Positions 2,604-36,125 of a DNA stretch of 64,000 nt are shown here, one piece after another. The notes beneath the pieces are model-generated. The model was not told the origin of the DNA. It saw nothing but the letters and a program-made list of their open reading frames with translations, and did not search any database. Each line of letters starts with the position of its first letter. Position 1 is the stretch's first letter. The position numbers were made by a program, and so were the translations under genes. Origin of the DNA: Candidatus Hadarchaeota archaeon (GTDB lineage: Archaea; Hadarchaeota; Hadarchaeia; Hadarchaeales; JAGGTB01); the NCBI GenBank assembly GCA_964384105.1, contig CAYLJV010000005.1, forward strand, positions 24,576 through 88,575. The letters run 5' to 3'.

Positions 2604-4622
2604 TTGGACGAGGATATAGGGCAGAGGTTAGAAGAGCTTTTGAGTAGCAGTGAAATAGCAGATGAATTACAGAAGCTTTCTTCAAAAGGTAAGAGGTCAC
2701 TTGTTCTAGATTTTGATCGTTTGTTTGAAGAGGATACTGATCTTGCTAACTATCTCCTTGATAATCCATCTAAGTTTTTAGAGAAGGCAGATTCTATTCT
2801 AAAAGACATAACTGAAATACCGGGCTTTCATTTACGGATTAAAAACCTGGATGAAACTGTTGATATAAGACAGGTAAGAGCCAGTGACGTGGGCAAATTC
2901 ATACAGTTAGAGGGTATTTTGACTCGGGCCAGCGATATAAAGCCGGAAATCAAGGTTGCTACTTTCAAGTGCCTTAAGTGTGGGGAGAGGAATAGGGTTC
3001 AACAACCTGGTGAGATGTTCAGGGAACCCCAAGTTTGTCAGAATCCGAACTGTTCGAAGAAAGGACCATTTAAGCTTGAGGCCGAGGACTCAGAATTTGT
3101 AGATTGGCAGAGCCTTAGAGTACAGGAGTTACCGGAGAAACTTAGAGGTGGTAGAATCCCTCGTTATATCAATGCCATAGCTAGGGATGATATTGTTGAT
3201 GAAGGGGTACCAGGTAACCAAGTTCTGATTACGGGCATTCTCAGAGCATTTCAGGAGTCCAAAAGAAACAAGAAAAAAACGACTTTCCAAAAAGTTCTTG
3301 AAATAAATTATATCAAAGTTAAGGAAAAGAGTGTAGAAGAGACAGAGCTCTCAGAAGAAGACGAAGAATGGATCGAGGATTTAAAGCAGAATCACCGAGT
3401 TAGAAATATTTTCATAAATTCTATTGCACCTAGTATTTTCGGTTACGAAAAAATCAAGGAAGCTATTGCTCTTCAGTTAGTTGGGTCTCCCGCTGTTGAA
3501 CTTCCGGATGGGTCGAGGATTAGAGGTGATAGTCATATTTTGATGACGGGGGATCCTGGAACGGCTAAGAGCCAACTCCTAAAGTGGACGAACAAAGTTA
3601 CACCTAGAGGAGTGTATACTTCGGGTAAGAAGGCGACTGGAGCGGGGTTGACTGCTGCTGCCGTTAGAGATGAGATGACTGGTGGTTGGACTCTTGAGGC
3701 AGGTGCTTTGGCCATAGGAGATGGTGGAATGGCTTGTATAGATGAGTTTGATAAGATGTCTGATGAGGATTCGGGTGCTATTTTGGAATCCATGGAGCAA
3801 CAAACTATTAGTGTGGCCAAGGCAGGTATTGTAGCAACTTTGAATACAAGAACAGCTATACTAGCAGCGGCTAACCCAAGGTTGGGTAGATTTGATAGAT
3901 ATGATCCTATTCCTCAACAGATAGATTTACCGGCTTTGATTCTATCCAGATTTGATTTGATATTTGTCTTGAGAGATGTTCCAAAGGAGGAGAAGGATCG
4001 GGATCTTGCGAAGCATATGTTGAATCTTCAGAGTAGTCCTGACAAGGTTGTCAAACCAGATTTGACTCAGGAGGAGCTTAGGAAATTAATAATTTATGCT
4101 AAAAAGTACGTTCATCCCAAATTTAAGAGCGAAGAGGTAAAGAAGAAATTAGAAGACTTTTTCGTTCAGTGGAGGAAGGTTGCTGGTGGAGAAATAGCTT
4201 CTGAAGAAGAAGCTGTTCCTATAACCGCTCGGCAGTTAGAAGCATTAGTGAGGTTGGCTAAGTCGAATGCACGACTAAGATTAGCCGATGAAGTTACAGT
4301 TGAGGATGCGGATAGAGCTATCGGGATTTTTAGGGCCTCACTCAGACAACTTGGTATAGAGGATGAGTCGGGTAAAACCGATATAGATCTTCTGATGACC
4401 GGTCACTCTAGAACCCAACACGAAAAACTCCAGAGAATTATGGAGATTATTGATGATTTGGAGAAGGATTACGAAGACGGAGCCCCCATCAAATTGGTCA
4501 AGCAAGAGGCAAGATCAGAGGGAATTGATCAAGAGTTTGTGGAAGAGATGATCCGCAGAGAAAAAAGAAACGGCAGACTTTACTCTCCAAGTGAGGAAGT
4601 AATCAGTCGGGCTACGAGGTGA
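2604..4622 (+). CDS. mcm: Replicative MCM helicase, no intein
   Basis: Zn finger CLKC/CQNPNC, GDPGTAKSQ Walker A, CIDEFDKM, SRFD arginine finger, ITARQLE. Confidence 0.97.
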   Translation: MDEDIGQRLEELLSSSEIADELQKLSSKGKRSLVLDFDRLFEEDTDLANYLLDNPSKFLEKADSILKDITEIPGFHLRIKNLDETVDIRQVRASDVGKFIQLEGILTRASDIKPEIKVATFKCLKCGERNRVQQPGEMFREPQVCQNPNCSKKGPFKLEAEDSEFVDWQSLRVQELPEKLRGGRIPRYINAIARDDIVDEGVPGNQVLITGILRAFQESKRNKKKTTFQKVLEINYIKVKEKSVEETELSEEDEEWIEDLKQNHRVRNIFINSIAPSIFGYEKIKEAIALQLVGSPAVELPDGSRIRGDSHILMTGDPGTAKSQLLKWTNKVTPRGVYTSGKKATGAGLTAAAVRDEMTGGWTLEAGALAIGDGGMACIDEFDKMSDEDSGAILESMEQQTISVAKAGIVATLNTRTAILAAANPRLGRFDRYDPIPQQIDLPALILSRFDLIFVLRDVPKEEKDRDLAKHMLNLQSSPDKVVKPDLTQEELRKLIIYAKKYVHPKFKSEEVKKKLEDFFVQWRKVAGGEIASEEEAVPITARQLEALVRLAKSNARLRLADEVTVEDADRAIGIFRASLRQLGIEDESGKTDIDLLMTGHSRTQHEKLQRIMEIIDDLEKDYEDGAPIKLVKQEARSEGIDQEFVEEMIRREKRNGRLYSPSEEVISRATR

Positions 4623-4626
4623 TTTT

Positions 4627-5178
4627 ATGGAGCAAGTTGTGAAGATATTACAAGATTTTCCGGAAGTAAGATTGGTAGGGAGAAACTTGGGGTCTTTCTC
4701 GGAAGGGGAGGAGGTAAGCCTTAAGGTTTGGGAAGCTTCTCTTCTTGAGGAGAGGGGGATAGCAAAACCTGTTGATGATTTTTCCGTAGTAGGAATTCGT
4801 AAGATGCTTATGAGGGAACAAAGATCTTCAGAGTTGAAAAAGATCCCTTCTAATTTTTATCACATTATTTCAAATAAGATCGAAAAGTTGAGACGTGAAG
4901 AAGAATTCGAGAAGGCTGAGGAAGTAAAGAAAATAATTAAGTCTTTAAGCAAGATCAGACTACAAAAAATTGCGAGAATTTCTTTGTCCTCTGATTCTAC
5001 TACAGATACGTCTTATATGGAAACTTTCTTTGTGAATAGACTTAATCATGTTCTTAAAATATGGAGACAACGGCTGGACCGTCTCCTAGAAGAAACCTAT
5101 AAAGAGGAGGTAGGTGCCCATAAAGGAGGAATCAGGAGGAGTATTCCGAGAGTTGTTGAAAACACAGCAGATATTTAA
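4627..5178 (+). CDS. GINS subunit (Gins23-like, B-A domain order)
   Basis: N-terminal B-domain pattern LGSFSEGEEVSLKVWEASLLEERG followed by a helical A domain; directly downstream of mcm. Confidence 0.7.
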   Translation: MEQVVKILQDFPEVRLVGRNLGSFSEGEEVSLKVWEASLLEERGIAKPVDDFSVVGIRKMLMREQRSSELKKIPSNFYHIISNKIEKLRREEEFEKAEEVKKIIKSLSKIRLQKIARISLSSDSTTDTSYMETFFVNRLNHVLKIWRQRLDRLLEETYKEEVGAHKGGIRRSIPRVVENTADI

Positions 5179-6397
5179 GAATAGAGAATATTTAAGACCG
5201 ACATATATACCCGAAAACTTGCCCCATCGGGGTGAGGAGATAGACCAATTAGCTAGGATATGGGTAGCACCCCTTAGAGGAGAGACTCCTTCGAATGTCT
5301 TTGTCTATGGAAAGACGGGCACAGGGAAGACTGCGACCGTAAAATACTTAATGGGCGAGCTGGAAGAGACTGCAGATGATTTTTCTCGAGAGATAAGAGT
5401 TGCTTATCTTAATTGCGAAGTTGTTGACACTAAATATAGAGTACTTGCTACTTTATCGAATAAGCTCCGTAGTGAGTTGAGTGATGATTTGAAGGAAGAT
5501 GGGGATTTACCGGATGAAGTTCCAATGACTGGCTGGCCGACGGATGAGGTATACGAAAATCTTCGAAGTATGTTGGATTTTAGGAATCAGATAGTAATAG
5601 TTATTTTAGATGAGATCGATCGATTGGTCTCGAAAGGAACTTCAGATGTTCTTTATCTTCTCACTCGAATAAATTCGGATTTGTCTAGGGCCAAAGTTGG
5701 AGTTGCAGGAATCTCAAATAATCTTAATTTTGTAAATGATTTAGATCCGAGAATTATTAGTAGCCTTGGAGAGGAGGAGGTTATATTTCCTCCATACAAT
5801 GCAGAACAGTTAAAGGATATTCTGATTGAGAGGTCTAGAAAGGGATTTGCTGAGAATGTTATTTCAGAGGGAGTGATAAGCCTTTGTGCGGCCCATGCTG
5901 CCAGAAAGCATGGTGATGCCCGAAGGGCACTAGACCTCCTGAGAAATGCGGGCGAAATTGCAGAGGAGGAGAGAGCTAAAGAAGTTAAGAATAAACATGT
6001 CACTCGCGCAGCCCAGCGAATCGAAAGAGATAGAATGGAAGAAGCGATCAGAACTCTTCCGGATCAATCAAAGTTAATTCTTTTGAGCGTTCTATTGCTT
6101 CAGGAAAGGAAAGCCCGTAAGATAGGAACTGGGGATGTTTACGATGTTTATTCTTCCTTATGCCGACAACATGGGTGGGAAATTTTAACCCGGAGGCGAG
6201 TTAGTGGGCTTCTTTCAGAATTGGACATGATGGGTGTTTTAGATGCAAGAGTGGTCAGTAACGGTCGTTATGGAAGGACTAAGGAAGTTGAGTTGAATGT
6301 TGACCCACTTCAGGTTAAATCGGCGATTCAGGAAGAGATCTATATAAAAAACTTGGATTCTCTTCCCGGACCTAAGCAGACTCGACTCGGAGGATAG
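5114..6397 (+). CDS. cdc6: Orc1/Cdc6 replication initiator
   Basis: YIPENLPHR, GKTGTGKT, ILDEID, HGDARRALDLL and a C-terminal wHTH with GRYGRT. Confidence 0.97.
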   Translation: MPIKEESGGVFRELLKTQQIFKNREYLRPTYIPENLPHRGEEIDQLARIWVAPLRGETPSNVFVYGKTGTGKTATVKYLMGELEETADDFSREIRVAYLNCEVVDTKYRVLATLSNKLRSELSDDLKEDGDLPDEVPMTGWPTDEVYENLRSMLDFRNQIVIVILDEIDRLVSKGTSDVLYLLTRINSDLSRAKVGVAGISNNLNFVNDLDPRIISSLGEEEVIFPPYNAEQLKDILIERSRKGFAENVISEGVISLCAAHAARKHGDARRALDLLRNAGEIAEEERAKEVKNKHVTRAAQRIERDRMEEAIRTLPDQSKLILLSVLLLQERKARKIGTGDVYDVYSSLCRQHGWEILTRRRVSGLLSELDMMGVLDARVVSNGRYGRTKEVELNVDPLQVKSAIQEEIYIKNLDSLPGPKQTRLGG

Positions 6398-6399
6398 AA

Positions 6400-8040
6400 A
6401 TGTCGAAGGCTTCCGAAGTTGTGGATAGATTTATTGATGAAGGAATGCATCTAACTCCAAAAGCTTTAGATTTAATTTTAGAGCGAACAGATTCGAATAT
6501 TTCCCAGGTGATTTCAAAGCTTGATGAAAGAAAAGATCGTCCTAGTATAATCACTGACGAGGTTTTATCTAGAATTTTGGAATCCGACGATACGATTACT
6601 TCCGATGCTTTTGAGCTCTCTTTGCAAGATGAAGATATTGAACCTGCAGAATGTAAAGAAAGTGTTGATACTGAGTCGGGCCATGGTTTTATAGAAGAAA
6701 AAGAGGAGTCGAGACTTCGGAAGAATTTGAAGATTACGAAACATCGTGATCATCAGGATCAGGTTCAAGTTTTGCAAGAAATTACTGGAAAAAGTACTAG
6801 TGAAGGCAAAGTTGAAGACTTCGTTCAATTGTTTAGAGATAGATACGAGAAGCTAAGTTCTATTATCCGTTCTAGGGAGGGATTCCAAAATTACACAGAG
6901 ATTGGCAATGTGGTAAGACATGAAGGTGATACAGTCCATCTGGTGGGATTAGTGAATAGTAAGAGAGAGACAAGAAATAAGGATGCGTGGTTGATAGAGC
7001 TAGAAGATCTTTCAGGAAAGGTTGTTGTTTACGTCAAAGATTCTCAAAGGAATGAGGAAGTTATCGAAAGTATGGGGAAAATAGTTACTGATGAGGTTAT
7101 CGGAGTGAGGGCAAAGGTACCTGATGACCTCCGGACAGGTGATAGAACTCCGCTGGTTTGGGGAAATGAAGTGGTTTGGCCAGATATTCCTATCTCAAGA
7201 TCCCCTTCTTTTGATCAGGATGAATCAGTAGAAGCTTCTGGTTTTGCAGTTCTCGTTTCTGATCTTCATGTTGGTAGTGGAATGTTTCTTCCAAAAGTTT
7301 TTGAAAAATTTCTCGAGTGGCTAAACTGTGAAGCAGGTAACGAGGAACAAAGAAAGATAGCGGAACAGGTGAAATATCTGATAATTGCAGGAGATTTAGT
7401 CGACGGAATTGGAATCTATCCCGGTCAGCAGAAGGAACTTGAAATAGAGAATATAGAGGATCAGTATATGAAGGTAGCTGATTATTTGTCTCAAGTTCCA
7501 GATAGGATAAATATTATCGCTTCTCCCGGAAACCATGATGCCGTTAGACTAGCTGAACCTCAGCCTTGTTTGTATTCCGAAGTGGCAAATCCTCTGCGAG
7601 AAATAGGAGTGAAGTTGGTAGGAAATCCTGCTCTTTTGGATATCGAGGGTATTAAGTTTCTTGTATATCACGGAATGGGTTTCGATGACTTATTTTCGGC
7701 AGTTTCTGGTTTAGATCGGAAGGATGTTGTCACTCCGATGAAAGAGATTTTGAGAAGAAGACATTTAGCTCCTATTTATGGAGAACCTATGGGAGGAAGG
7801 ACGCCTATAGCGCCTGAGAAAGAAGACTATTTAGTAATTGATGAAGTGCCAGATGTCTTACATTGTGGCCATCTACATAGGTATGGGTGCGGAGAATATC
7901 GAGGAGTTCTAATGGTTAATTCAGCCACTTTCCAGGAACAGACTGTATTTATGAAAAGACAGGGGATTGTTCCAACGCCTGGTCGAGTTCCTATAGTTGA
8001 TTTGGAAACAAAGAAAGCGAGGGCGATAAATTTTGCCTAG
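6400..8040 (+). CDS. polB: DNA polymerase D small (proofreading) subunit DP1
   Basis: OB fold plus calcineurin-like motifs SDLHVGS, AGDLVDG, PGNHD, YHG, HLAP, GHLH. Confidence 0.95.
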   Translation: MSKASEVVDRFIDEGMHLTPKALDLILERTDSNISQVISKLDERKDRPSIITDEVLSRILESDDTITSDAFELSLQDEDIEPAECKESVDTESGHGFIEEKEESRLRKNLKITKHRDHQDQVQVLQEITGKSTSEGKVEDFVQLFRDRYEKLSSIIRSREGFQNYTEIGNVVRHEGDTVHLVGLVNSKRETRNKDAWLIELEDLSGKVVVYVKDSQRNEEVIESMGKIVTDEVIGVRAKVPDDLRTGDRTPLVWGNEVVWPDIPISRSPSFDQDESVEASGFAVLVSDLHVGSGMFLPKVFEKFLEWLNCEAGNEEQRKIAEQVKYLIIAGDLVDGIGIYPGQQKELEIENIEDQYMKVADYLSQVPDRINIIASPGNHDAVRLAEPQPCLYSEVANPLREIGVKLVGNPALLDIEGIKFLVYHGMGFDDLFSAVSGLDRKDVVTPMKEILRRRHLAPIYGEPMGGRTPIAPEKEDYLVIDEVPDVLHCGHLHRYGCGEYRGVLMVNSATFQEQTVFMKRQGIVPTPGRVPIVDLETKKARAINFA

Positions 8041-8842
8041 TATAAAAAAAGAGTTCTCTAACTTGGAGGCCTTTCTTTTTGATATGGATGGTGTTCTCTA
8101 CATTGGTGAGTCTCCTATTAGGGGTTCTAAAGAGGCGATCTATTCTCTGAGGCGAGAGGGGAAAAAGATAGCTCTTCTGACTAATAATTCTACTAAGTCC
8201 CGGAAAAGTTACGAAAAGAAATTTTCTGAGGTTGGTCTGGAAATAGATAAATCTAATATAATAACTTCTAGTTATGCTACAGCCCTCTACTTATCCGAGA
8301 ATTACAAAGAAAGGAAGGTTTATGTGATTGGAGAAGCGGGGCTAAAAACTGAGTTGGAGGAGGCGGGATTCGATATTCTTTCCCGAAAGGATTCGAAAAA
8401 CGCAGATTTTGTTGTTGTGGGGATGGATAGAGGACTAACTTACGATAAAATCTGGGGTGGACTATCTGCTCTTCTATCCGGAGCTGAATTTATAGCTACA
8501 AATTCTGACCCAACCTACCCGACCGAGCAGGGCTTATCTCCAGGTGCAGGCGCATCAATAGGTGCACTCTCAGGGTCTTCAAAGAGAGAGCCTTCTACGG
8601 ACATAGGGAAGCCTTCTACCTATATGATTGATACGGCACTTGATATTCTCGGGGTTCCTCGAGAAAAAACCGCGATCGTAGGGGATAGAATAGATATGGA
8701 CATAAAAGCGGGCAACCGAGCGGGTCTTACTTCTATTCTGGTTTTGACCGGTGTAGATGATCGAGATAATGCTAATACTGCTGTGGGAACTGAAGCTGCT
8801 CCAGATTATGTGATTTCCGATCTTCTTGAATTATTAGAGTAG
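8033..8842 (+). CDS. HAD-IIA (NagD-like) phosphatase
   Basis: FDMDGVL, LTNNS, GKPS, VGDRIDMDI. Confidence 0.9.
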   Translation: MPSIKKEFSNLEAFLFDMDGVLYIGESPIRGSKEAIYSLRREGKKIALLTNNSTKSRKSYEKKFSEVGLEIDKSNIITSSYATALYLSENYKERKVYVIGEAGLKTELEEAGFDILSRKDSKNADFVVVGMDRGLTYDKIWGGLSALLSGAEFIATNSDPTYPTEQGLSPGAGASIGALSGSSKREPSTDIGKPSTYMIDTALDILGVPREKTAIVGDRIDMDIKAGNRAGLTSILVLTGVDDRDNANTAVGTEAAPDYVISDLLELLE

Positions 8843-8850
8843 GTGGTTTT

Positions 8851-11800
8851 CTGAAAGATTATTTCTCTATTTTGGACGAAGGACTGGAAAAGGCCTATGA
8901 AACTGCTAAAAAGGCTAGAAAGAGAGGATTTGATCCAAAAGATGAACCCGAGATTCCTTTGGCGGAGGATCTCGCTGCTAGGGTAGAGAAGCTGGCTGGA
9001 CCGGAGGGGGTTGCGGAGGCGATTAGAGACCTTGAGAAGGATTACTCCCGAGAGGATCTGACTTTCAAGATCGCAGAGATGATTGTTGACGATGAATTTG
9101 GACACCTTTCCGATAGTGAAGCAGCTGAACAGTCTGTTAGAACTTGTTTGGCTATTATAACTGAGGGGGTTGCTGCCGCTGCACCCATAGAAGGAATAAC
9201 AAAAGTTGATATAAAGGAAAATTTTGATGGTTCCCTCTATCTGGCTATCTATTTCGCGGGTCCTATAAGGTCCGCGGGGGGGACTGCAGCTGCGCTTGCG
9301 GTACTACTGGGAGACTTTGTTAGAAGGAAGATGAATTTGAGTTCCTATGAACCCTCAGATCTTGAAGTGGAGCGATTTGTGGAAGAGGTAAATATCTACG
9401 GGGATACTGTAGGATTACAGTATACGCCAAGAGAAGATGAGGTTAGAGAAGCATATCAGAATATTCCTGTTGAAGTAACGGGTGAACCCACTGAACAGGA
9501 GGTTGTAACTGGGTACAGAAATCTTGAGAGAGTTGAGACAAACAGGGTGAGGGGAGGTGCAGTTCTGGCCATAGCCGAGGGTGTTCTTCAGAAGGCACCA
9601 AAGATATTGAAGCACCTTGATAATTTGGGCTTAGGTGGATGGGAGTGGCTCAGTGATTTGCAGAAGCCCTCTTCGTCTGAGGAAGAGGAGAAGCAGAAGT
9701 ATCCAAAAGGGGATAAATATCTTAAGGACATTATAGCTGGCCGAGCGGTTTTTAGCCATCCTGGTAGACCCGGTGGTTTTAGATTAAGATATGGGCGTGC
9801 TCGCAACACAGGACTTGCTGCCGCGGGTGTTCACCCTGCGACGATGAGGATCTTGGATGATCATATCTCCACTGGTATACAACTGAAGACTGAGCGTCCA
9901 GGGAAAGCGACAGCTGTTTCCCCTGTTGATTCGATCGAAGGTCCTACTGTACTTTTGAAAGATGGTTCAGTAATCCGTTTGGATTCAGCTTCAGTAGCTA
10001 AGGATATCAAAGACGATGTTAAGGAAATATTGTCTCTTGGAGATATTCTCTTTGGTTATGGTGAGTTCTTGGAAAATAATCATCCATTGATGCCTTCCGG
10101 TTATTGCCAGGAGTGGTGGTCTCTAGAGGTCAAAAAAGAACTCAAAAATAAAGACTTCGAAGAAGATTTGGCTCCTTACTTAGAACCCCCCTTCGAAACC
10201 CCCAGTCCAGGACTTGCTTTAGAAGTTTCTAGGAATCTAGATGTTCCTCTTCATCCTGACTTTACTTTCAATTATCACGATTTGGAGATAGAGGAAATTG
10301 AAAGGTTAGGGAACTGGCTGGCTTCTTGTGATGCTAGTTTCGAAGGAGAGATTTTAGGAAATCTTCGCGGCAATCTCGATAAAGACTCTAAGAGAATGTT
10401 GGAGGTTTTGGAAGTTCCCCATGATGTTGAAGGTGATGAGATCATTATTGGGGAGGAGTCGCTTCCCCTCTGTGAAAGTCTGGGCCTTGTTGAGGGTGAA
10501 AATTTAAACTCTAATCGTCTTAGCTCCGCTGTCCGGGAGAATAGTGAGTTAGACACAGTAGATTTATTGAACTTAGTGGCAGGATTTCCGATCAGAGAAA
10601 AGGCTCCCACTCGTATAGGTGCAAGAATGGGCCGTCCCGAGAAAACTAATCCAAGAAAGATGAGTCCTCCCCCGCATGTTTTATTCCCGATAGGGTGGGC
10701 CGGAGGGAATACGAGAAATGTGGGCAAGGCATCCGACAAGGAAAATGTACAGATCGAGGTTGCACATTGCGAGTGTCCTGAATGTGGTGAGGTTACTATT
10801 CTCAACAAATGTCCCAGCTGTGGTACTAGGACAGAGATGACCCGTTATTGCACTAAATGTGAACGACCTTCGAAAGAAGAAAATTGTGTTGCGTGTGGGG
10901 GTCGAGCAACTTTCTATCGTGAAAGAGAAGTGGACCTTAAGTCCTTTTTGAATGACGCACTTGGTAGGTTAGAGGAAGGTATTCCAGGAACTCTTAAGGG
11001 AGTAAAGGGAATGACTAGTGCATATAAACTCCCTGAACCTCTCGAAAAAGGTATTCTCAGATCAAAACATGATGTTTATGTTTTTAAGGATGGGACTATA
11101 AGATTTGATGCTACGGATTTGCCCCTTACACATTTCTACCCTCGTGAGATAGATGTTTCAGTTGAACGACTTAGGGAGATGGGTTATACTGAGGATTATA
11201 GAGGAGACCCTTTGGAAAATGAAAATCAGATCTTGGAGCTGAAGGTTCAAGATATACTTCTATCAAAATCTGCAACGGGCTATCTCTTAAAGACTGCCCA
11301 ATTCGTTGACGATTTGCTAGAGAAGTTTTACGACTTGCCTCCATTCTACAATGCGAATGAGAAGGAGGATTTGATTGGTCATCTCGTGATTGGCCTTGCC
11401 CCTCACACTTCTGCTGGAATAACTGGTAGGATAATTGGATTCTCGGAAGCCAATGTTGGATATGCTCATCCTTACTTTCATGCCGCTAAGAGAAGGAATT
11501 GTTTCAATTATGATCATAGAGTTTTCTTTTACGATGAAAGTGTTGATAAATTTGTGACTAGTAAGGTAGGCGAATTAGTTGAGAATAGGTTTCAAAATAA
11601 GGAGCCAATACCCTTAGATAATTTCGGTACCGAAAAGGTCTGTTCCGATGGTAATCTATATGCTTATGTTTTAGATAGGGAGTCTGGAAAACTTGTTAAG
11701 AAACCGATTAATTGCTTTATTAGAGGAAGGACCGAGAAGTGGGTGAATATTACTACTTCGACTAACAGAGAGCTGAAAGTCACTCCAGGTCATAATATTT

Positions 11801-13782
11801 CTGTTATGGAGGATGGGGAGCTTAGAGTAAAAAAAGCTATTGAGATTAGTGAAGGAGATAGAATCCCTATTTCTTTGAAAACTCCTATTGAGACAAAAAT
11901 AGATAACCTAAACCTAGCTAGAGAACTCTCTACTTTAGAAGAAGAAAAACTTATGCAGATAAGAATAAGAAACGTTGAAGAATTTTTTGTTCAGATTATG
12001 GAGGAAATAGGAAAGAAAAAGCTTTACGAAATCTGTGGAGGTGCGAAGAGCTTTCCAAAAAGTTTGTCGGATTGGTACAAGAGTGTGCCTTTGTTACATT
12101 TCAAGAAGATATGTAGTGAGGGTGTAAGAGATTACGAGGATTTACCTAAAGATGCGAAACTGGGTATTAGACGAGATAGTGTTGCACTCCCCTGTTACAT
12201 TGAAGATATACTTTCATTGTTCTGGCTTTTAGGGATGTATTGTGCAGAAGGCTGGTCTAGATCAACAGAAAGTTCTCATCAGGTCTCTTTTAGAATAGGA
12301 AATGAAAGGTTGAGAGAAAGAGTAAAATCTGCTATAAAAAGCGTTTTTGGACTAGATCCATATGAGAAAAATGGAAAGCTTACATATTCCTCAAAGATAC
12401 TCCGGTTCCTTATTTCGAATGTTTGGAATGCGGGTTCTTCTGCTTACGAGAAAAAAGTTCCAGAAATAGTTTACCATGGCGATGACGAGAAAGTGAAGGC
12501 TTTCCTATCTGCTTATTTTGATGGGGACGGAAGCATTAGTCTTTCCCCCGATAGAGTAACTTTCTATTCAGTTTCGAAGAAGCTTTTGGAGGGAATCTCA
12601 AATCTACTTTTGAGAGTTGATGTATTCTCACGGTATCTAAGAACCGGTTTGAGAGAGCCGGGAAGAACGGTGGCTAGGAAATACAAAAAACGTGGGAAGG
12701 AACCTGTAGAACATCGTTTGTATCATTTAGTATTGACGGGGGAGGATAGGTATAAATTCGCTTCTTATGTCCAACCTGTCTCTGAAAAGAAGCGAGATAG
12801 AGCTTCTAAAATGGCAGAATTTTCACCCGAGAATGCTAAGAGGCTTATAAATTACAAGGGTAAAAATTACGAAGCAACCCCCTCTAGCGATTATACTTTT
12901 GATGTAGTTAAGGGAACTTCGGTATTGAAAACACGGGGTGAAAAAACTTATTGTATTGATGTAGATGGGGAAGAAATATTGGACAAAAATGTTCTCTGGC
13001 ATAATCAACTTGTACAATTACGATGTGATGGCGATGAAGATGCGATAATGTTGCTTCTCGATGGCCTCTTGAATTTCAGTCGTTATTACCTTCCTGAGAC
13101 TCGAGGCGGGAAAATGGATGCTCCGCTTGTTTTAACTCCTCACTTGGACCCTTCTGAAATAGATGACGAGGCACACAATCTCGACGTGGACGAGATTTAT
13201 CCATTGGAATTCTATGAGGCTTCTTTACTTTACGAGAATCCCAGTAAACTATCTTCAAAGATTGGAATTGCCGAGAATAGGTTGGGTACTGAGGAGCAAT
13301 ATAAAAATCTCAGTTTTTCTGAAGCCCATAATCCTACATCTATTTCTGCAGGTCCTACGTCCTGCCGATACAAGTCTTTGGGTCCTATGGAAGAAAAGAC
13401 AGATTCTCAACTTTCCTTAGCAAGAAAAATTCGTGCTGTTGACGAATCTGATGTAGTTGAAAGGTTGATCGAGAACCATTTTATTCCAGATCTAAAAGGT
13501 AATCTCAGAGCTTTCTCTCGTCAAAAGTTCCGTTGCGCTTCGTGTAATTCAAAATACAGGCGGGTTCCTCTTACTGGTAAGTGTACTAATTGTGGTGAGA
13601 ATTTGATCTTGACGGTCACTAAGGGAGGAGTAGAGAAGTATATAGATGTAGCTAGAAGGGTTGCTGGAGAATATGGGGCCTCTCAGTATACTAAACAGAG
13701 GCTGAGACTAGTCGAAGAGGAGATCGAGTCCGTCTTTGTCAGTGATATAAAAGAGCAGCTGAGTCTGGCAGATTTTGTATAG
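8851..13782 (+). CDS. polC: DNA polymerase D large subunit DP2 with intein; start probably CTG 8851 (ORF track uses TTG 8872)
   Basis: AGPIRSAGGT, GGFRLRYGR, GARMGRPEK, HAAKRRN-[intein]-CDGDED and C-terminal Zn fingers. Confidence 0.95.
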   Translation: MKDYFSILDEGLEKAYETAKKARKRGFDPKDEPEIPLAEDLAARVEKLAGPEGVAEAIRDLEKDYSREDLTFKIAEMIVDDEFGHLSDSEAAEQSVRTCLAIITEGVAAAAPIEGITKVDIKENFDGSLYLAIYFAGPIRSAGGTAAALAVLLGDFVRRKMNLSSYEPSDLEVERFVEEVNIYGDTVGLQYTPREDEVREAYQNIPVEVTGEPTEQEVVTGYRNLERVETNRVRGGAVLAIAEGVLQKAPKILKHLDNLGLGGWEWLSDLQKPSSSEEEEKQKYPKGDKYLKDIIAGRAVFSHPGRPGGFRLRYGRARNTGLAAAGVHPATMRILDDHISTGIQLKTERPGKATAVSPVDSIEGPTVLLKDGSVIRLDSASVAKDIKDDVKEILSLGDILFGYGEFLENNHPLMPSGYCQEWWSLEVKKELKNKDFEEDLAPYLEPPFETPSPGLALEVSRNLDVPLHPDFTFNYHDLEIEEIERLGNWLASCDASFEGEILGNLRGNLDKDSKRMLEVLEVPHDVEGDEIIIGEESLPLCESLGLVEGENLNSNRLSSAVRENSELDTVDLLNLVAGFPIREKAPTRIGARMGRPEKTNPRKMSPPPHVLFPIGWAGGNTRNVGKASDKENVQIEVAHCECPECGEVTILNKCPSCGTRTEMTRYCTKCERPSKEENCVACGGRATFYREREVDLKSFLNDALGRLEEGIPGTLKGVKGMTSAYKLPEPLEKGILRSKHDVYVFKDGTIRFDATDLPLTHFYPREIDVSVERLREMGYTEDYRGDPLENENQILELKVQDILLSKSATGYLLKTAQFVDDLLEKFYDLPPFYNANEKEDLIGHLVIGLAPHTSAGITGRIIGFSEANVGYAHPYFHAAKRRNCFNYDHRVFFYDESVDKFVTSKVGELVENRFQNKEPIPLDNFGTEKVCSDGNLYAYVLDRESGKLVKKPINCFIRGRTEKWVNITTSTNRELKVTPGHNISVMEDGELRVKKAIEISEGDRIPISLKTPIETKIDNLNLARELSTLEEEKLMQIRIRNVEEFFVQIMEEIGKKKLYEICGGAKSFPKSLSDWYKSVPLLHFKKICSEGVRDYEDLPKDAKLGIRRDSVALPCYIEDILSLFWLLGMYCAEGWSRSTESSHQVSFRIGNERLRERVKSAIKSVFGLDPYEKNGKLTYSSKILRFLISNVWNAGSSAYEKKVPEIVYHGDDEKVKAFLSAYFDGDGSISLSPDRVTFYSVSKKLLEGISNLLLRVDVFSRYLRTGLREPGRTVARKYKKRGKEPVEHRLYHLVLTGEDRYKFASYVQPVSEKKRDRASKMAEFSPENAKRLINYKGKNYEATPSSDYTFDVVKGTSVLKTRGEKTYCIDVDGEEILDKNVLWHNQLVQLRCDGDEDAIMLLLDGLLNFSRYYLPETRGGKMDAPLVLTPHLDPSEIDDEAHNLDVDEIYPLEFYEASLLYENPSKLSSKIGIAENRLGTEEQYKNLSFSEAHNPTSISAGPTSCRYKSLGPMEEKTDSQLSLARKIRAVDESDVVERLIENHFIPDLKGNLRAFSRQKFRCASCNSKYRRVPLTGKCTNCGENLILTVTKGGVEKYIDVARRVAGEYGASQYTKQRLRLVEEEIESVFVSDIKEQLSLADFV
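11500..13023 (+). mobile_element. 508-aa intein with LAGLIDADG homing endonuclease in DP2
   Basis: Inserted at the conserved RRN/CDGDED site. Starts CFNYDH, has block B VTPGH, LAGLIDADG helices LLGMYCAEG and FLSAYFDGDG, block F TYCIDV, and ends ...QLVQLR. Confidence 0.93.
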
Positions 13783-16654: not shown

Positions 16655-16743
16655 GCCGGGGTGGCAGAATCTGGCTAATGCGCCGGCCTCGAGAGCCGGT
16701 GGCCTTCGTGGCCATCTGGGTTCAAATCCCAGCCCCGGCGCCA
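16655..16743 (+). tRNA. tRNA-Ser(CGA), long variable arm, CCA encoded
   Basis: Acceptor stem GCCGGGG/CCCCGGC, anticodon arm CCGGC-CTCGAGA-GCCGG, GGTTCAAATCC T-arm, discriminator G then CCA. Confidence 0.95.
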
Positions 16744-16748
16744 TTTTT
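16727..16748 (+). repeat. attL (tRNA 3' end)
   Basis: Exact match to 26309-26330. Confidence 0.92.
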
Positions 16749-16789
16749 GCCCGTAAATTTATTAGTGTTATCTTACATAATTTTACTCG

Positions 16790-17308
16790 ATGTCTAAGAC
16801 GGACACGATAAAGCAGAGACGTGTGGACGTTTATCTCGATTCTCTTGAGAGGAAGAAGGAGCTGAAGGAAATAGCCGAGGAGGAGGATATTTCTCTTTCT
16901 AAGTTCATTCAGCGTTGTATTGAGTATGCGATGGATCAGGGAGGGCCGGATCTTACTGAAACTGGCGCAGCAAAAAAGAAAGTTGAGAGTTTAGAGGAGG
17001 AGGTTTCTGAGCTTCGGAGGAAGTTGGAGCGGAAGGATAAGGTTATCGAGCGGCTTGAGGATGAGTTGAGGAAGTATAGGTTGGAAAAGTTTTCTGGGGA
17101 GGAGTTTGAGGGTGTTAGGGAGTTTGATGAGGAGTTGGTGGAGGTTTTGAAGGAGGATGGTTGGCATAATGATGAGGAGATTTTGAGGAGGCTTGATGTT
17201 GATCCTAAGAATTCTGATCTGGTTTCTGCTGTGAGGAGGCAGTTGGAACAGCTTGAGAATTATGGTTTGGTTAGATCGGGTAAGATGGGTTGGAGGTGGG
17301 AGGGATGA
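16790..17308 (+). CDS. RHH + coiled-coil + wHTH protein, integrase-associated
   Basis: RVDVYL...ISLSKFIQRCIE (RHH-like), a heptad coil, and a C-terminal wHTH ending LENYGLV...GWRW. ATGA overlap with the integrase. Confidence 0.65.
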   Translation: MSKTDTIKQRRVDVYLDSLERKKELKEIAEEEDISLSKFIQRCIEYAMDQGGPDLTETGAAKKKVESLEEEVSELRRKLERKDKVIERLEDELRKYRLEKFSGEEFEGVREFDEELVEVLKEDGWHNDEEILRRLDVDPKNSDLVSAVRRQLEQLENYGLVRSGKMGWRWEG

Positions 17309-18276
17309 AGGCTGAATATAAAATCTCTGAAGGTGGGGAGGCTGGTTCTGATTTGATTGAAGGTTTTTTGAAGGATTTGGAGGTTCAGGGAAAGAGTGAA
17401 GGGACGGTTAGGGATTATAGGACTTATGTTTCTAGGTTTGCAGAGTTTCTTGAAGAGGAGGATTCTGTTTCTTTTGAGGAGGTTGGGACTGGGTGTTTGA
17501 GGGATTTTATTGGTTATCTTCGTGAGGAGCGGGGTCTTTCTGAGAAGACTATTGGTAATTATTTTTCTGGTCTTTCGAGTTTTTACGAGTATTTGAAGTT
17601 TGAGGGTTTGGTTGATGGTAATCCTGTTTTACCGGTGAGGAAGCGTTACGTTAAGGTTTCTAACGGTAATTCTGGCGGTTCTAAGAGGCAGTTGATTTCT
17701 GTGGAGGAGATGGCTATGCTTGTGAACAGTATTTTGAATTCTAGGGATCGAGCGTTGGTTGTGCTTTTGGCTAAGACCGGTGTTAGGCGGAATGAGTTGT
17801 CGGCTATTGATGTTTCTGATATTGATTTGGAAGATCAGTCTATTCGGCTTAAGGAGAAGTTTAGGGAGGGTAAGCGTTCGAATTTGACTGTGTTTTTCGA
17901 TGATGAATGTGCTAGGGTTTTGAGGAGATGGTTGGATGAGAGGGGGGAGTGGTTGAAGGAGGAGGATACGGATGCTTTATTCTTGAATAATTATGGTACT
18001 AGGTTGAAACGTCATGGGATTCAGTATGCGGTTAGGAAACATGCGGAGCGAGTAGGATTACATGACCCGGATAGTGATGATTTGAAGGATAAATTCACTG
18101 CTCATTGTTGTAGACATTGGTTCACTACTCATTTGCGTAGGAATGGTATGCCTAGGGAGCATATTAAGGAGCTTCGAGGAGATTCGAGGGGTGAGGCGAT
18201 GGATATTTATCATCATATTGATAAGAAGGAGCTTAGAGAGTCTTATTTGGCTCATATTCCTAGTTTGGGTCTTTGA
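17305..18276 (+). CDS. Tyrosine recombinase/integrase
   Basis: N-terminal SAM-like domain; catalytic motifs TGVRRNE, HCCRH, LRGD and DIY. Confidence 0.93.
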   Translation: MKAEYKISEGGEAGSDLIEGFLKDLEVQGKSEGTVRDYRTYVSRFAEFLEEEDSVSFEEVGTGCLRDFIGYLREERGLSEKTIGNYFSGLSSFYEYLKFEGLVDGNPVLPVRKRYVKVSNGNSGGSKRQLISVEEMAMLVNSILNSRDRALVVLLAKTGVRRNELSAIDVSDIDLEDQSIRLKEKFREGKRSNLTVFFDDECARVLRRWLDERGEWLKEEDTDALFLNNYGTRLKRHGIQYAVRKHAERVGLHDPDSDDLKDKFTAHCCRHWFTTHLRRNGMPREHIKELRGDSRGEAMDIYHHIDKKELRESYLAHIPSLGL

Positions 18277-18293
18277 ATTTCTTTTCCGGATTT

Positions 18294-18710
18294 TTATTTG
18301 ATGTTTAGGTGTTTGATGAGTTCAGATGTTTTCCAGGCGTTTACTTTTTCTTGTTTTTGGAAGTGTTTGTCGTCTGACCATATGTCTGCGTCTAGGTGTA
18401 GGGCTAGGGCTAGAAATGGTACGTCGTCTGGGTCGATTTCTCCGATGATTTTTTCGGCTTGGGGTAGTGGGTTTTTGAATTCTGGTTTTGGTGTGATGTT
18501 GATTTGTTCGAGGATTATGTTGAGTAATAGTTGTAGGTCGGGTTTGTCTAGTTTTGTCTTGTTCTTGATTTCGTTTTGATGATTTTTGAGTTCGGTGAAG
18601 GTGTATTCTGGGGCGTGTAGGTTTTGATTGTCTGTTATGATGATTTTTCTTGTTTTCCCTCCGGCTATTAGGGCTGAGAAGAGGATGTTTGTGTCTATGA
18701 CTAGTTTCAT
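18294..18710 (-). CDS. vapC: PIN-domain toxin (VapC-like)
   Basis: MKLVIDTNILFSALI...DPDDVPFLALA...IWSDDKH. The true start is 18710, overlapping the antitoxin stop. Confidence 0.88.
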   Translation of the reverse strand: MKLVIDTNILFSALIAGGKTRKIIITDNQNLHAPEYTFTELKNHQNEIKNKTKLDKPDLQLLLNIILEQINITPKPEFKNPLPQAEKIIGEIDPDDVPFLALALHLDADIWSDDKHFQKQEKVNAWKTSELIKHLNIK

Positions 18711-18934
18711 GTGGTTTCCCTGTAGTGTTTTGCTATGTTGTGTTTGAGGTTTTTGCTCAGTTCTTCTGCTCCTTCTTCTGTTAGTTTGCTTTCTGAGGCT
18801 ATTTTTTCTGCGACTTCTAGTTTGCGTATGTAGGTCCACATGGATTGTCTGGCGACTTCGCTCCAGTTTATTTCTGGGTGGTTGTCGATTTCTTTTTTCA
18901 GGTCTTCGGGGATTCTTATCGTCATGTTCGGCAC
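18707..18934 (-). CDS. RHH antitoxin (VapB-like)
   Basis: MTIRIPEDLKKEIDNHPEINWSEVARQ; GTG start after a GGTGA SD; ATGA-coupled to the PIN gene. Confidence 0.82.
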   Translation of the reverse strand: MPNMTIRIPEDLKKEIDNHPEINWSEVARQSMWTYIRKLEVAEKIASESKLTEEGAEELSKNLKHNIAKHYRETT

Positions 18935-19008
18935 ACTAATCACCAGTGCATATATGTGTATGCAAATACTAATAAGTTTGATTATCAGGGTTTGAATTGC
19001 TTCGGGTG

Positions 19009-19680
19009 TTATTTGTTTAGTACTTTTTTCTTGAGTTCCTCTACAATTTTTGAAGGTAAATAATCGAGTGAGGTTTGTGGTAGGCCTCTTATTCCTAGGA
19101 TGAAGTATTTTTTGTTTTCTTTTGCCTTTTTAACTGTATCTTTGGATAGTAGGTCTTTTTGAGGGTATTGGAAGAGTCTGTTTACGAGTGGTCCGGCTAG
19201 TGCTTTGCTGTATATGGGTAGGTATTTTTCGTATAGGATTTTGGAGTTGTATTTTCCTATTTCTTCTAGTTCTTGTGAGAATAGTTCTCGGACTTGTTTT
19301 TTGGTTGGTAGTTCGATTGTGAAGTATTCTGGTAGTGCGCAGCTGAGTGAGATGTCCCAGATTGCGTTAACGTCTGGCATGTCTGCGGTTCCTATTTTGT
19401 TTAGGATTTTGCTGTAGCCTTTGATGATTTCTTTGACTGTTTGGAGTTGTTCTTCTTTTATTCCGGCCATTTGATTGAGGTAGTCTGTGTAGACGGTTGT
19501 GTCGGATTTGTATTTTTTGATTAGGTTTCTTCCTCTCCCTCCACTTTCTTTTTCAAAGGTTTCGCTCTTGAGTAGTCCTTCTTTATCCATTTCTCTGATT
19601 GTGTTTCCGATGTGTTTTCTCGAATAACCTGTGAAGTGTTCGTTTTCATCGTTAAGGTCGTATTCTTCGGCTAGTTTCAT
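19009..19680 (-). CDS. Putative wHTH DNA-binding protein of the element; may extend to about 19764
   Basis: GYSRKHIGNTIREMDKEGLL...GGRGR..KKY fits a wHTH recognition helix plus wing. Confidence 0.55.
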   Translation of the reverse strand: MKLAEEYDLNDENEHFTGYSRKHIGNTIREMDKEGLLKSETFEKESGGRGRNLIKKYKSDTTVYTDYLNQMAGIKEEQLQTVKEIIKGYSKILNKIGTADMPDVNAIWDISLSCALPEYFTIELPTKKQVRELFSQELEEIGKYNSKILYEKYLPIYSKALAGPLVNRLFQYPQKDLLSKDTVKKAKENKKYFILGIRGLPQTSLDYLPSKIVEELKKKVLNK

Positions 19681-20037
19681 GATGTTGAGTTTTCTCTCTA
19701 TTAGGGAGAGATAGAGTCTTGATCTGGTTTCGGAATTGGTTAGTGTTTGCCATCTCGCAAATATTCAAGAAACACCCCCGTTATTTGTTTTTCGTTAATA
19801 ATTTAGGTTGGTGTTTTATAATGGGTTTCGGGGAGGGGGACCTGAATGTACTTTAAAAAATTTTATTTGGCTTTGCCCGTCTGATTCCTTATTTTTATGC
19901 TTAAAATCATTCTATTTGCAAGCATAAATGAACTATATCCCCATCTGATAAGCTTAAACTTCCTTATAGTGCTTATTTAAGCTAAAAATCCTTTAATAGT
20001 CCTCTAAATTTATTTTAATACAGAATTAGGTCATAAA

Positions 20038-20325
20038 ATGATATCGAATATATTTTCGGATTCTAACTTGAACGGTGAAAGTGCGGGTGAAAGTAAGGTT
20101 GTTCGGCTTGGTGTTTGGGAGGAGGCTAGGGGTTGTTTGAAGGAGATCGATAGTGAAGAGGGTGAAGTCGTTCTTGAGGTCCGTAGAGAGTTCAAGATTA
20201 AGCTTCCTCCTCAGAAATTGGACGATCTTAAAGGTTCGATTGGTGAGAAAATTAGTGTTCTGAAGACGGATGGGTCGGTTGATGATGATTTTCTGGTAAA
20301 TATTGAGGGGGATGGGAATGTTTAG
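20038..20325 (+). CDS. Small hypothetical protein, beta-rich and possibly OB-like
   Basis: First gene of an overlapping three-gene unit; no clear motif. Confidence 0.5.
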   Translation: MISNIFSDSNLNGESAGESKVVRLGVWEEARGCLKEIDSEEGEVVLEVRREFKIKLPPQKLDDLKGSIGEKISVLKTDGSVDDDFLVNIEGDGNV

Positions 20326-20692
20326 GATTTTGAAGAAGGTTTTTACGGTTTTGTATCTGTTTTTTGCTTTGTTGTTTCCTTTTGTTTTGACTGATTGGCT
20401 TTCATTTTCTGATTGGTTTGTGCTGCCTTTGATTTTGTTTTTCTTTGGTTTGGCGGACCCTTGGGAGGCTTATAGACGTATCAAGTCGGCTGTTTTTGAT
20501 CTCTTTGATGATCTGGTTTTGGGCCGTACTCGTGATATGAGGAGGAGGTGGATTAGATCGGAAATGAGACGGGGTTTTCGAGAACTGCTTGAGCTTCTAG
20601 ATCGGTATAGGAATGATGAGGTCGGTGTTAATTGGTTGTTGGTTAGGTTGGAGCAGATTGAGGATGTAATTGGGAGGGAAAAACATGACTAG
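20318..20692 (+). CDS. Small membrane protein (2 TM plus cytoplasmic helix)
   Basis: Two hydrophobic segments; overlaps both neighbouring genes. Confidence 0.55.
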   Translation: MFRILKKVFTVLYLFFALLFPFVLTDWLSFSDWFVLPLILFFFGLADPWEAYRRIKSAVFDLFDDLVLGRTRDMRRRWIRSEMRRGFRELLELLDRYRNDEVGVNWLLVRLEQIEDVIGREKHD

Positions 20693-26459: not shown

Positions 26460-27179
26460 CTATCCTTTAGGTAAGTTCTTAATTTCACAATTTTCGAAGT
26501 TATCTTTTATCTCTTCCCGAATTTCCCTTATTTTTTCGTCGGCAATAGGTTCTAGTTGCTCGTATTTTTCTTTTAAAGTGTTCTGGGGAATAAACTGCTG
26601 TAGGTGGTAATTTTTGGTTCTTCCTTTTATCTGGTCTGCGATGTCTATTATTTCATCTTCACTAACGATATTTGGAACGATAGTGGTCCTGAATTCATAA
26701 TTTGTGTTGGAATGTTCTAACAGTGAGATTGTTTTCTTTACGTTTTCAAATAACTCTTTTTTATCAACACCAATGGCTTTTCTATATTTTTTCCAGTTTA
26801 GTGGTGCTTTTATGTCTAGAAAAATATGGTCGGTAAGGTTTCTCTCAAGAAGCTTTTTCAGCATATCAGGATTTGATCCATTTGTTTCTATTCCAACTTG
26901 AAACCCTAATTCTTTGACTTTTTTGGAAAATTCTGGCAGAGCGGAATCCATAGTTGGTTCTCCTCCCGTTATTACTAGGCCATCTAACCATCTCTTTTTT
27001 GACTCTAGATGGTTTAATATCTCATTTTCTTCTATCACTGGGAGTCTTTCTGGGTTAAGTACCAAATCTTTGTTTTGGCAAAATGGACATCTAAAGTTAC
27101 ACCCACCGACAAATGCAACCGCTACTATCTTCCCCGACCACTCGATAAGAGAGCTTTTTTCAAGGCCTCTGAATTTCAT
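26460..27179 (-). CDS. nrdG: Anaerobic ribonucleotide reductase activase (radical SAM)
   Basis: GCNFRCPFCQN, ITGGEPT, ETNG, EFRTT; directly downstream of nrdD. Confidence 0.9.
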   Translation of the reverse strand: MKFRGLEKSSLIEWSGKIVAVAFVGGCNFRCPFCQNKDLVLNPERLPVIEENEILNHLESKKRWLDGLVITGGEPTMDSALPEFSKKVKELGFQVGIETNGSNPDMLKKLLERNLTDHIFLDIKAPLNWKKYRKAIGVDKKELFENVKKTISLLEHSNTNYEFRTTIVPNIVSEDEIIDIADQIKGRTKNYHLQQFIPQNTLKEKYEQLEPIADEKIREIREEIKDNFENCEIKNLPKG

Positions 27180-27189
27180 GAGCCACCCT

Positions 27190-34914: not shown

Positions 34915-35511
34915 CTAACCTTCAGAAAAAATATTCGGTGCAATGTCTTTTACTTCTTTCAACATTCTCTTTGCTACTTTTCTGATTTCCCACTGAGCGC
35001 TTTCGTCAAGTCTTAGATTGAAAAAGTGTAGTAATTCTCTTCCATTCATAGTCACGGTAATATTGGTCGGTGCAGCTATTGGTAGTACAAATCTCGCATC
35101 CTCTTTTGGTACTCCTTTTTTCAATAATTTCTTATACGTCGAAATCGAGTAATCCAAGAGTTTCTTGTAGTCCTCTTCGGCACCGGCTTCTTTGATTGAG
35201 TCGGGGATAACAAAGTCTTCATACTTCAGTTTGGAAAGATTAACGTACCTCATGGATTGTTGTGAGTATGAAGCTAGTCTATGTCTGACTAGTTGGTGGG
35301 TGCAACTTCTGGAAACTCCTTCTATTGAGAAAGTAAAATTTGCATGTTCTATTACAGAGAGATGACCGAGCTTTTTGGCTTTTCTTATATAATATTCAGC
35401 GGGTTTTTCTAAAGCGAGTTTGTCAGAAGGTTCCTTCGTATGGCAGCTCCTGAAGGCTCTTGCAACGATCTCTTCTGGATTAGGTGTATGTCTTATTAAT
35501 TCGACTCTCAA
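34915..35511 (-). CDS. thyX: FAD-dependent thymidylate synthase
   Basis: GHLSVIEH, QLVRHRLASYSQQSMRY, EDARFVLP, AQWEIR. Confidence 0.95.
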   Translation of the reverse strand: MRVELIRHTPNPEEIVARAFRSCHTKEPSDKLALEKPAEYYIRKAKKLGHLSVIEHANFTFSIEGVSRSCTHQLVRHRLASYSQQSMRYVNLSKLKYEDFVIPDSIKEAGAEEDYKKLLDYSISTYKKLLKKGVPKEDARFVLPIAAPTNITVTMNGRELLHFFNLRLDESAQWEIRKVAKRMLKEVKDIAPNIFSEG

Positions 35512-35546
35512 TTTTTTCCCTCTTTGCTTTTTTGATATCGGACTAT

Positions 35547-36053: not shown

Positions 36054-36125
36054 ATCTACACCACGTCTTTCCTAATTTCTTTTGCAAGGAATTTATAATC
36101 ATAGGCTATGAGATTGAGTTGGTTT

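Follow-up and report, generated by a model that had tools for sequence, protein, structure and literature searches.

Protein splicing is taught as a process of four steps, the third of which relies on a terminal Asn, rarely Gln or Asp, of the intein. A locus of a Candidatus Hadarchaeota archaeon (assembly GCA_964384105.1, contig CAYLJV010000005.1) raises the question of how an intein ending in Arg could leave its host protein. The stretch of 64,000 nucleotides that was analysed (positions 24,576 to 88,575 of the contig, forward strand; hereafter the window) carries the gene for DP2, the large subunit of the essential archaeal replicative DNA polymerase PolD, and the catalytic motif of this gene is split by an intein with Arg as its last residue. 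The element probably belongs to a genuine, large and old clade of Arg-ended homing-endonuclease inteins of single origin, which lie at the N/CDGDE site of archaeal PolD DP2 (the slash marks the insertion point) and would splice autonomously with a non-canonical C-terminal cleavage. The host gene and its parts are as follows.

8872-13782, + strand: open reading frame (ORF) of the PolD large subunit DP2 precursor, 1636 codons with the intein included, uninterrupted
8872-11499, + strand: N-extein, C-terminal end ...PYFHAAKRRN
11500-13023, + strand: intein of 508 amino acids (1524 nucleotides, 508 codons, in frame), a Hedgehog/intein (HINT) splicing domain with a nested LAGLIDADG homing endonuclease
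13024-13782, + strand: C-extein, beginning with Cys+1 of the catalytic CDGDED motif (13024-13041)

Pfam matches to PolC_DP2_N, PolC_DP2_central and PolC_DP2_cat (E 4.5e-107 to 2.5e-135) identify the ORF as DP2, and the precursor shares 64% identity across 1595 amino acids with DP2 from the record of an MSBL1 archaeon. At the N-terminal junction the DNA is aag aga agg aat / tgt ttc aat tat, with the TGT of Cys1 at 11500-11502. A first-pass annotation of the window had described the C-terminal junction as HNQLVQLR/CDGDED, lacking a penultimate His and with a terminal Arg encoded by CGA, and the DNA at 13000-13041 reads exactly so (cat aat caa ctt gta caa tta cga / tgt gat ggc gat gaa gat); CGA occupies 13021-13023 and the TGT of Cys+1 13024-13026. 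The intein starts with Cys and ends in ...NQLVQLR, with Leu as the penultimate residue and Cys as the residue that follows.

The boundaries were checked by searching the final 100 residues of the N-extein and the initial 126 residues of the C-extein separately against the PDB. The former align to 6hms_B 856-954 and 5ijl_A 861-959, the latter to 6hms_B 955-1077 and 5ijl_A 960-1059, both of which are solved, intein-free DP2 structures. Since the two exteins match neighbouring residues (954/955 in 6hms_B, 959/960 in 5ijl_A), Asn-1 and Cys+1 are adjacent in mature DP2 and the insert is exactly the stretch from Cys to Arg. The boundaries are unambiguous: as in class 1 inteins, this is a removable in-frame insert at a conserved host site, and the same alignments bear out the earlier placement of the insertion at the catalytic N/CDGDED motif.

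The Pfam Intein_splicing alignment stops 6 residues early, at an internal His-Asn pair (13000-13005, protein residues 1377-1378). An intein end at this pair was considered but can be ruled out: it would put Gln, which is not a nucleophile, at +1, the exteins become contiguous only on removal of the entire C...R segment, and the pair is not conserved among the Arg-ended relatives described below (His is replaced by Gly in 25 of 56, and Asn by Glu or Asp in 17 of 56). Shifted boundaries, with an end at the Gln or Asn of position -3 or a start two residues earlier, were also discarded, as residue +1 would then be Ile, Leu, Thr, Ala or Phe, the RR[ND]C motif would be lost and position -3 varies. 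An RNA-level mini-intron of 18 nucleotides over QLVQLR does not fit the conservation of these residues at the protein level or their place in the final beta-strand. In DP2 genes of this clade, automatic pipelines may put the C-terminal splice site in the wrong place or overlook it.

Whether the terminal Arg is real was addressed with homologues. A protein search with the intein region covered 5.8 billion proteins and gave 156 matches at E<=1e-3, of which the best 120 were used. In 118 of these the intein could be delimited between RR[NDST] and CDGD[EA], while a truncated protein (P0032) and one without such a C-terminal motif (P0086) were dropped. All 118 are homologous, share the insertion point with the RR[ND]/CDGDE-site inteins of DP2 and fall into one tree. 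The terminal residue is Arg in 56 (the window's own protein included), Gln in 41 and Asn in 21, which agrees with the earlier statement that DP2 inteins often end in Gln and answers the search for xRCDGDED junctions that had been proposed with it. Among the matches listed, the Arg-ended inteins are the nearest relatives of the window intein, from 60% down to about 33% identity, and identity within the clade drops to about 31-35%. As every member of the nearest clade has the same terminal Arg, the residue is not a chance oddity. Those Arg-ended matches that carry names belong to records with the titles MSBL1, Micrarchaeota, Pacearchaeota and Thermoplasmatales, and record titles of the clade across the protein and genome sets comprise Thermoplasmatota, Woesearchaeota, Nanoarchaeota, Pacearchaeota, Hadesarchaea, Iainarchaeota and MSBL1.

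For a phylogeny of all 118 inteins (IQ-TREE quick mode, LG+G4, unrooted tree), the terminal residue was removed. All 56 Arg-ended inteins lie on one side of a single branch (Shimodaira-Hasegawa-like approximate likelihood ratio test, SH-aLRT, 95), corresponding to 1 change, whereas in the same tree Gln requires 11 changes and Asn 10. The group nearest to the Arg clade consists of Gln- and Asn-ended inteins, the named members of which were found in Hodarchaeota and Heimdallarchaeota records. Going beyond the first-pass annotation, the comparison of sequences thus points to a large, old and monophyletic clade with further changes in the active site.

A second, index-free search of 1.84 billion representatives at 50% identity added 147 further proteins. 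In these, 64 DP2 junctions could be identified, with 26 inteins ending in Gln, 25 in Asn, 11 in Arg and 2 in Asp. The two Asp-ended inteins (P0255, ...TID/CDGDE, and P0262, ...TYD/CDGDED) lie at the same site, so that all four terminal residues, Asn, Gln, Asp and Arg, are found among the inteins of this one insertion site.

To collect the codons of the terminal residue, a degenerate DNA pattern encoding Q-h-x-[QNHK]-x-R-C-D-G-D-E was run against a set of genomes in which each prokaryotic species is represented once. Since only Arg (or Ser AGY) is allowed at the junction and only Gln at position -6, the pattern misses LLGNG-type members and is blind to relatives without Arg. It found 82 loci, comprising 62 DP2 junctions (61 in records with archaeal titles and 1 titled Atribacteria) and 20 unrelated chance matches in bacteria. 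In the 62 genome loci the junction Arg is encoded by CGA (23), AGA (19), AGG (10), CGT (4), CGG (4) and CGC (2), and in a tree of 54 scanned inteins plus that of the window the junction codon changed at least 21 times, at least 13 of them between CGN and AGR. Selection evidently acts on the Arg residue and not on its codon. The DP2 ORF of the window holds 11 CGA codons, two of which fall in columns where all of the 40 homologues compared have Arg. Arg in 56 of 56 members of the protein set, the use of six codons and CGA at conserved Arg columns together exclude a sequencing error, a reassignment of CGA and single-base editing to Gln or Asn. The first-pass annotation had offered three readings of the junction. 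Sequencing error is countered by the 55 other Arg-ended proteins of the clade, which come from independent assemblies, and recoding or editing by the codon evidence, which leaves non-canonical splicing chemistry as the only reading to survive, and in a strengthened form.

Two records from the genome scan are unusual in their titles. A 2.1-kilobase contig titled Atribacteria (L007) contains an archaeal DP2 with a WHNQ-type Arg intein, and a record titled Methanosarcinales (L053) contains a WGEQ-type intein that is otherwise seen in DPANN records; mis-binning or transfer is possible in both cases.

The next question is whether the element still has the parts of a working intein. Its motifs are listed here, with block positions (F:4, F:6, F:13, B:12, G:5-7) assigned from the alignment and from the block descriptions in passages of PMC4031507.

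11500-11502, + strand: Cys1 of block A, the N-terminal nucleophile; present as Cys in all 118 delimited DP2 inteins
11782-11793, + strand: block B, T95-P-G-H98 (TxxH); T95 and H98 each in 56 of 56 Arg-clade inteins, H98 in 62 of 62 Gln/Asn-ended inteins
12217-12258, + strand: LAGLIDADG motif 1 (LFWLLGMYCAEGWS); Pfam LAGLIDADG_3 57.7 bits; G245 and G251 invariant, E250 Glu in 48 of 56
12502-12540, + strand: LAGLIDADG motif 2 (FLSAYFDGDGSIS); D343 in 51 of 56 and G344 in 54 of 56 Arg-clade inteins
12949-12960, + strand: start of block F, Y484-C485-I-D487, with Cys F:4 and acidic F:6; C485 in 56 of 56 Arg-clade inteins
12985-12987, + strand: K496, aligned with the block F His (F:13) of Gln/Asn-ended inteins; Lys or Arg in the Arg clade
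13009-13023, + strand: last strand, L504-V-Q506-L-R508, block G; terminal Arg in 56 of 56

Cys1, Cys+1 and the block B TxxH motif of class 1 inteins are all present in the window intein, Cys+1 is invariant just as Cys1 and the Thr and His of block B are, and the glycines and acidic residues of the endonuclease motifs are kept in most members of the Arg clade. An AlphaFold2 model of the intein, with six extein residues on either side, was built on 55 Arg-clade sequences. It reached a predicted local distance difference test score (pLDDT) of 92.1 and a predicted template modelling score (pTM) of 0.92, and its C-terminal end is modelled as strand-turn-strand with residues 504-507 as the final strand, followed by Arg508. 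The top PDB matches of the model in Foldseek are all intein-endonucleases (PI-PkoII 2cw7, E 3.4e-28; TliVMA; PI-PfuI; PI-SceI). As modelled, the window intein has a normal intein-endonuclease fold, and the model, the Foldseek matches and the LAGLIDADG_3 domain place it among HINT-fold proteins with a nested LAGLIDADG endonuclease.

The host genes are largely intact as well. Full-length and uninterrupted ORFs of DP2 plus intein were found at 45 of the 62 genome loci, a further 15 run into contig ends and the remaining 2 are interrupted. In these two (L052 and L071) the frame is broken away from contig ends, and the open stretch before the junction spans just 181 and 1166 codons, respectively; they could be pseudogenes, frameshifts or assembly errors.

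An insert that splits the catalytic N/CDGDED motif of a replicative polymerase most likely still splices on its own. Together with the invariant splicing residues, the normal fold, the intact host ORFs and the location in a row of replication genes (see below), this split motif is strong indirect evidence that the element removes itself. Judged from these features of sequence and gene context, it is very likely that the Arg-ended intein splices.

What the intein does not have are the residues on which the third step normally depends. The terminal Asn, Gln or Asp of class 1 inteins is replaced by Arg in the window and in 56 of 56 members of the clade, and neither of the assisting His residues is present, with Leu at G:6 and Lys at F:13. 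Across the clade, F:13 is Lys in 46 and Arg in 10, compared with 51 His, 7 Asn, 3 Lys and 1 Arg in the 62 Gln/Asn-ended inteins. At F:4 Cys is found in 56 of 56 versus 47 Cys, 10 Asp and 5 Ser, and position 487 (F:6) is Asp in 42 and Glu in 14 versus mostly Glu (23), Asn (22) and Thr (14). Position -3 is Gln in 39, Asn in 16 and Ser in 1 of the 56 Arg-clade inteins as aligned and mostly Thr, Ser or Val in the others. Three members (P0034, P0122 and P0129) have Thr or Ser at position -3, which indicates that Gln or Asn is not essential there. Position -2 (G:6) is variable in the Arg clade (Ile 35, Thr 6, Leu 5, Ala 5, Phe 4 and Val 1) and never His. Passages of PMC4031507 describe G:6 His as often absent from working inteins. 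Trp81 and Asp468 are invariant in the Arg clade and set it apart from the Gln/Asn-ended inteins. A class 3 intein can be dismissed, since the window intein has Cys1 and carries Ile100 and Gln506 in place of Trp B:12 and Thr G:5, and only Cys F:4 fits.

The explanation that accommodates these observations best is autonomous splicing with an altered third step. Steps 1 and 2 would proceed as usual, by an N-to-S shift at Cys1 and transfer to Cys+1, for which the machinery (Cys1, Thr and His of block B, Cys F:4 and Cys+1) is kept. In step 3 the branched intermediate would be resolved without cyclisation of Asn, Gln or Asp. Preferably, the N-epsilon of Arg508 would attack the backbone carbonyl of its own residue and release the C-extein, leaving the intein with a six-membered N-amidino delta-lactam as the counterpart of the glutarimide formed by Gln-ended PolII inteins. 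Lys or Arg at F:13 and Asp or Glu at F:6, which are specific to the clade, would tune this step. The terminal Arg N-epsilon as nucleophile is the first choice for the chemistry, but a tentative one. It lies at the same side-chain distance as the Gln N-epsilon-2, so that a six-membered ring could form here too, and an Arg as its own nucleophile would directly explain why Arg is invariant. The lactam is further favoured by the single transition that separates Gln CAA from Arg CGA, with neighbouring clades ending in Gln or Asn, and by a known reaction of Arg with an activated carboxyl group: delta-lactam formation is reported to be the worst of the side reactions that accompany Arg coupling in peptide synthesis (PMC7352207). 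An Arg-selective chemical cleavage (as outlined in parts of PMC10463270) was also considered as a precedent and set aside as not relevant, because it cuts on the other side of Arg and proceeds via an aldehyde.

Several points weigh against the proposal as a whole or against the Arg chemistry. All Arg-ended members come from uncultured organisms, and the guanidinium group is a very poor nucleophile at neutral pH. The Pfam Intein_splicing score of the window intein (35.0 bits) is just below the cut-off (35.8 bits). The carrier genomes may have a second, intein-free DP2 gene elsewhere. As the tree is unrooted, the direction of change from Gln or Asn to Arg is inferred. The genome scan demanded Arg, so that its all-Arg outcome holds by construction and only the diversity of the codons counts as evidence. 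Because Arg arose once, its links to Lys or Arg at F:13, Asp or Glu at F:6 and Gln or Asn at position -3 are a signature of the clade and not independent co-variation. Finally, the F:13 His that helps Gln and Asn to cyclise is lost in the Arg clade, which could suggest a different chemistry.

Such a different chemistry might be provided by Cys485 (F:4). Acting as a nucleophile in the manner of a cysteine amidase, it would attack the carbonyl of Arg508 and free the amine of the C-extein, and the intein thiolactone would be hydrolysed later; Asp or Glu F:6 would serve as the base, Lys or Arg F:13 as the oxyanion stabiliser, and Arg508 would position the scissile bond or activate the thiol. The set of Cys, Glu and Lys resembles that of nitrilase-type amidases. 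The residues required are conserved in every Arg-clade member (C485 in 56 of 56, an acidic residue at 487 and a basic one at F:13), and in class 3 inteins Cys F:4 is described as the obligate nucleophile of the same active site (PMC4031507, PMC2807308). Taken alone, though, the route leaves the strict requirement for a terminal Arg unexplained; many Gln/Asn-ended inteins of the site (47 of 62) have Cys F:4 as well, and the class 3 partners at B:12 and G:5 are missing. It is therefore rated as unlikely, though not far behind the Arg nucleophile.

Somewhat less likely still is that Arg and Lys are electrostatic catalysts only, with the Arg-Cys bond either hydrolysed directly or opened by an N-to-S acyl shift at Cys+1, followed by aminolysis of the N-extein thioester and thioester hydrolysis. 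Two basic residues and one acidic residue specific to the clade do cluster in blocks F and G, and bacterial intein-like domains are known to carry out cleavage or ligation although they lack the usual set of residues (according to passages of PMC4031507). The acyl shift, however, would occupy the very thiol that is needed to accept the N-extein, uncatalysed amide hydrolysis is slow, and neither variant accounts for the strict need for Arg.

It is also improbable that the element no longer splices, with DP2 working while the domain is retained or only N-cleaved, with another polymerase or DP2 copy in use, or with a host protease finishing the job by cutting after Arg. The canonical third-step residues (terminal Asn, Gln or Asp, G:6 His and F:13 His) are indeed all missing, and the view is limited to 64 kilobases of the genome. 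Against this, Cys1, Thr95 and His98 stay invariant despite the divergence within the clade, the insert splits the catalytic motif, and the exteins are intact and highly conserved. The endonuclease motifs are also kept in most members across many archaeal lineages, which fits a mobile element that is harmless on arrival without a host-specific helper. The weakest alternative, an artefact of sequencing, assembly, RNA editing or a reassigned CGA that hides a true Gln, has the single transition between CGA and CAA in its favour and practically no chance beside the independent Arg-ended proteins, the CGA codons at two conserved Arg columns and the use of all six Arg codons, of which AGA and AGG cannot be reached from any Gln or Asn codon by a single base change.

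The DP2 gene closes a row of replication genes on one strand (2604-13782), near which a replication origin may lie.

2604-4622, + strand: MCM
4627-5178, + strand: ORF of 183 amino acids without known function, between MCM and Cdc6/Orc1
5114-6397, + strand: Cdc6/Orc1
6400-8040, + strand: PolD small subunit DP1 (Pfam DNA_pol_E_B, Metallophos)
8033-8842, + strand: HAD-family hydrolase, between DP1 and DP2

Downstream, the region 16655-22796 is probably an integrated element. AT skew falls to -0.29/-0.20 at 16-24 kilobases, and a search for an attachment-site repeat around the integrase beside the tRNA-Ser gave no clear one.

16655-16743: tRNA-Ser(CGA)
17290-18276: tyrosine integrase, after tRNA-Ser(CGA) and one unknown ORF
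18294-18839, - strand: PIN_2 protein
20670-22796: ORF of 708 amino acids without a Pfam match, one of several such ORFs

Elsewhere in the window, an anaerobic ribonucleotide reductase NrdD and its activase (26460-29415) are encoded without an intein. Beyond a pst/phoU cluster follows a run of pyrimidine genes (34915-43694: thyX, dCMP deaminase, pyrG, pyrD/K, pyrC, pyrB/I, pyrF and a pyrE-like gene). Two adjacent, slightly overlapping ORFs at 58541-59580 (160 and 186 amino acids) both correspond to the N-terminal half of the ArsP_1 permease profile and could be a two-gene arrangement or a split gene.

Arg-ended inteins occur in at least 62 species-level genomes of several archaeal phyla, inside the active-site motif of a replicative polymerase. 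If the proposal is true, a clade that retains Arg would show that the third step of splicing can be achieved in another way, and either an Arg nucleophile or the Cys F:4 set would cleave the peptide bond by a chemistry that has not been described in an autoprocessing protein. It is rather likely, if somewhat less so than the existence of the autonomously splicing clade, that Arg-ended PolD inteins are a fourth mechanistic kind, a widespread natural clade that splices without cyclisation of Asn, Gln or Asp through an Arg nucleophile or an amidase-like set around Cys F:4. They offer enzymologists a defined, clonable test case and could add a self-cleaving chemistry to intein-based protein engineering.

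Among known systems, natural inteins with atypical Gln or Asp termini (CIV ribonucleotide reductase and others) were reportedly found to still splice by Amitai et al. in 2004. Gln and Asp can cyclise like Asn, whereas Arg is outside the Asn, Gln and Asp given for the terminal residue in passages of reviews of 2014 (PMC4031507) and 2023 (PMC10663303), where it is Asn and otherwise Gln or Asp. A search of the full-text literature, with subscription-only papers outside its reach, found neither an Arg-ended intein nor a new class for it, and the passages of an intein survey that were available (PMC4760082) make no mention of one.

A close parallel is found in the studied PolII inteins of P. abyssi, P. 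horikoshii and Methanoculleus marisnigri, which end in Gln (passages of PMC4031507, PMC8229266 and PMC8175363), and those of P. abyssi and P. horikoshii are described as splicing by Gln cyclisation (parts of PMC8229266 and PMC8175363). The PolII mini-inteins (2lcj, 5bkh and 7oec) share with the window intein the DP2 host, the RRN/CDGDED site, class 1 organisation with Cys1 and Cys+1, and an unusual terminal residue, and they are weakly but detectably homologous to it (2lcj, E 1.7e-5 in a PDB sequence search). They end in His-Gln and keep the block F His, whereas the window intein ends in Leu-Arg, has Lys in place of this His and Gln instead of Thr at G:5, and carries a LAGLIDADG endonuclease. 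Relatives ending in ...THQ (P0103, P0119 and P0120) came from the same protein search as the Arg-ended matches. The nearest solved folds to the model are PI-PkoII (2cw7), TliVMA, PI-PfuI and PI-SceI (E 3.4e-28 to 1e-10), among which the nearest PDB sequence match is also found; these presumably reside in other host proteins and have canonical termini. Class 3 inteins, in turn, have the invariant Cys F:4 in common with the Arg clade and provide an earlier example of an entire clade whose mechanism was re-routed in a single event (passages of PMC4031507). They lack Cys1, re-route step 1 and carry the WCT motif, whereas the Arg clade retains Cys1, lacks Trp B:12 and Thr G:5, and would have changed step 3.

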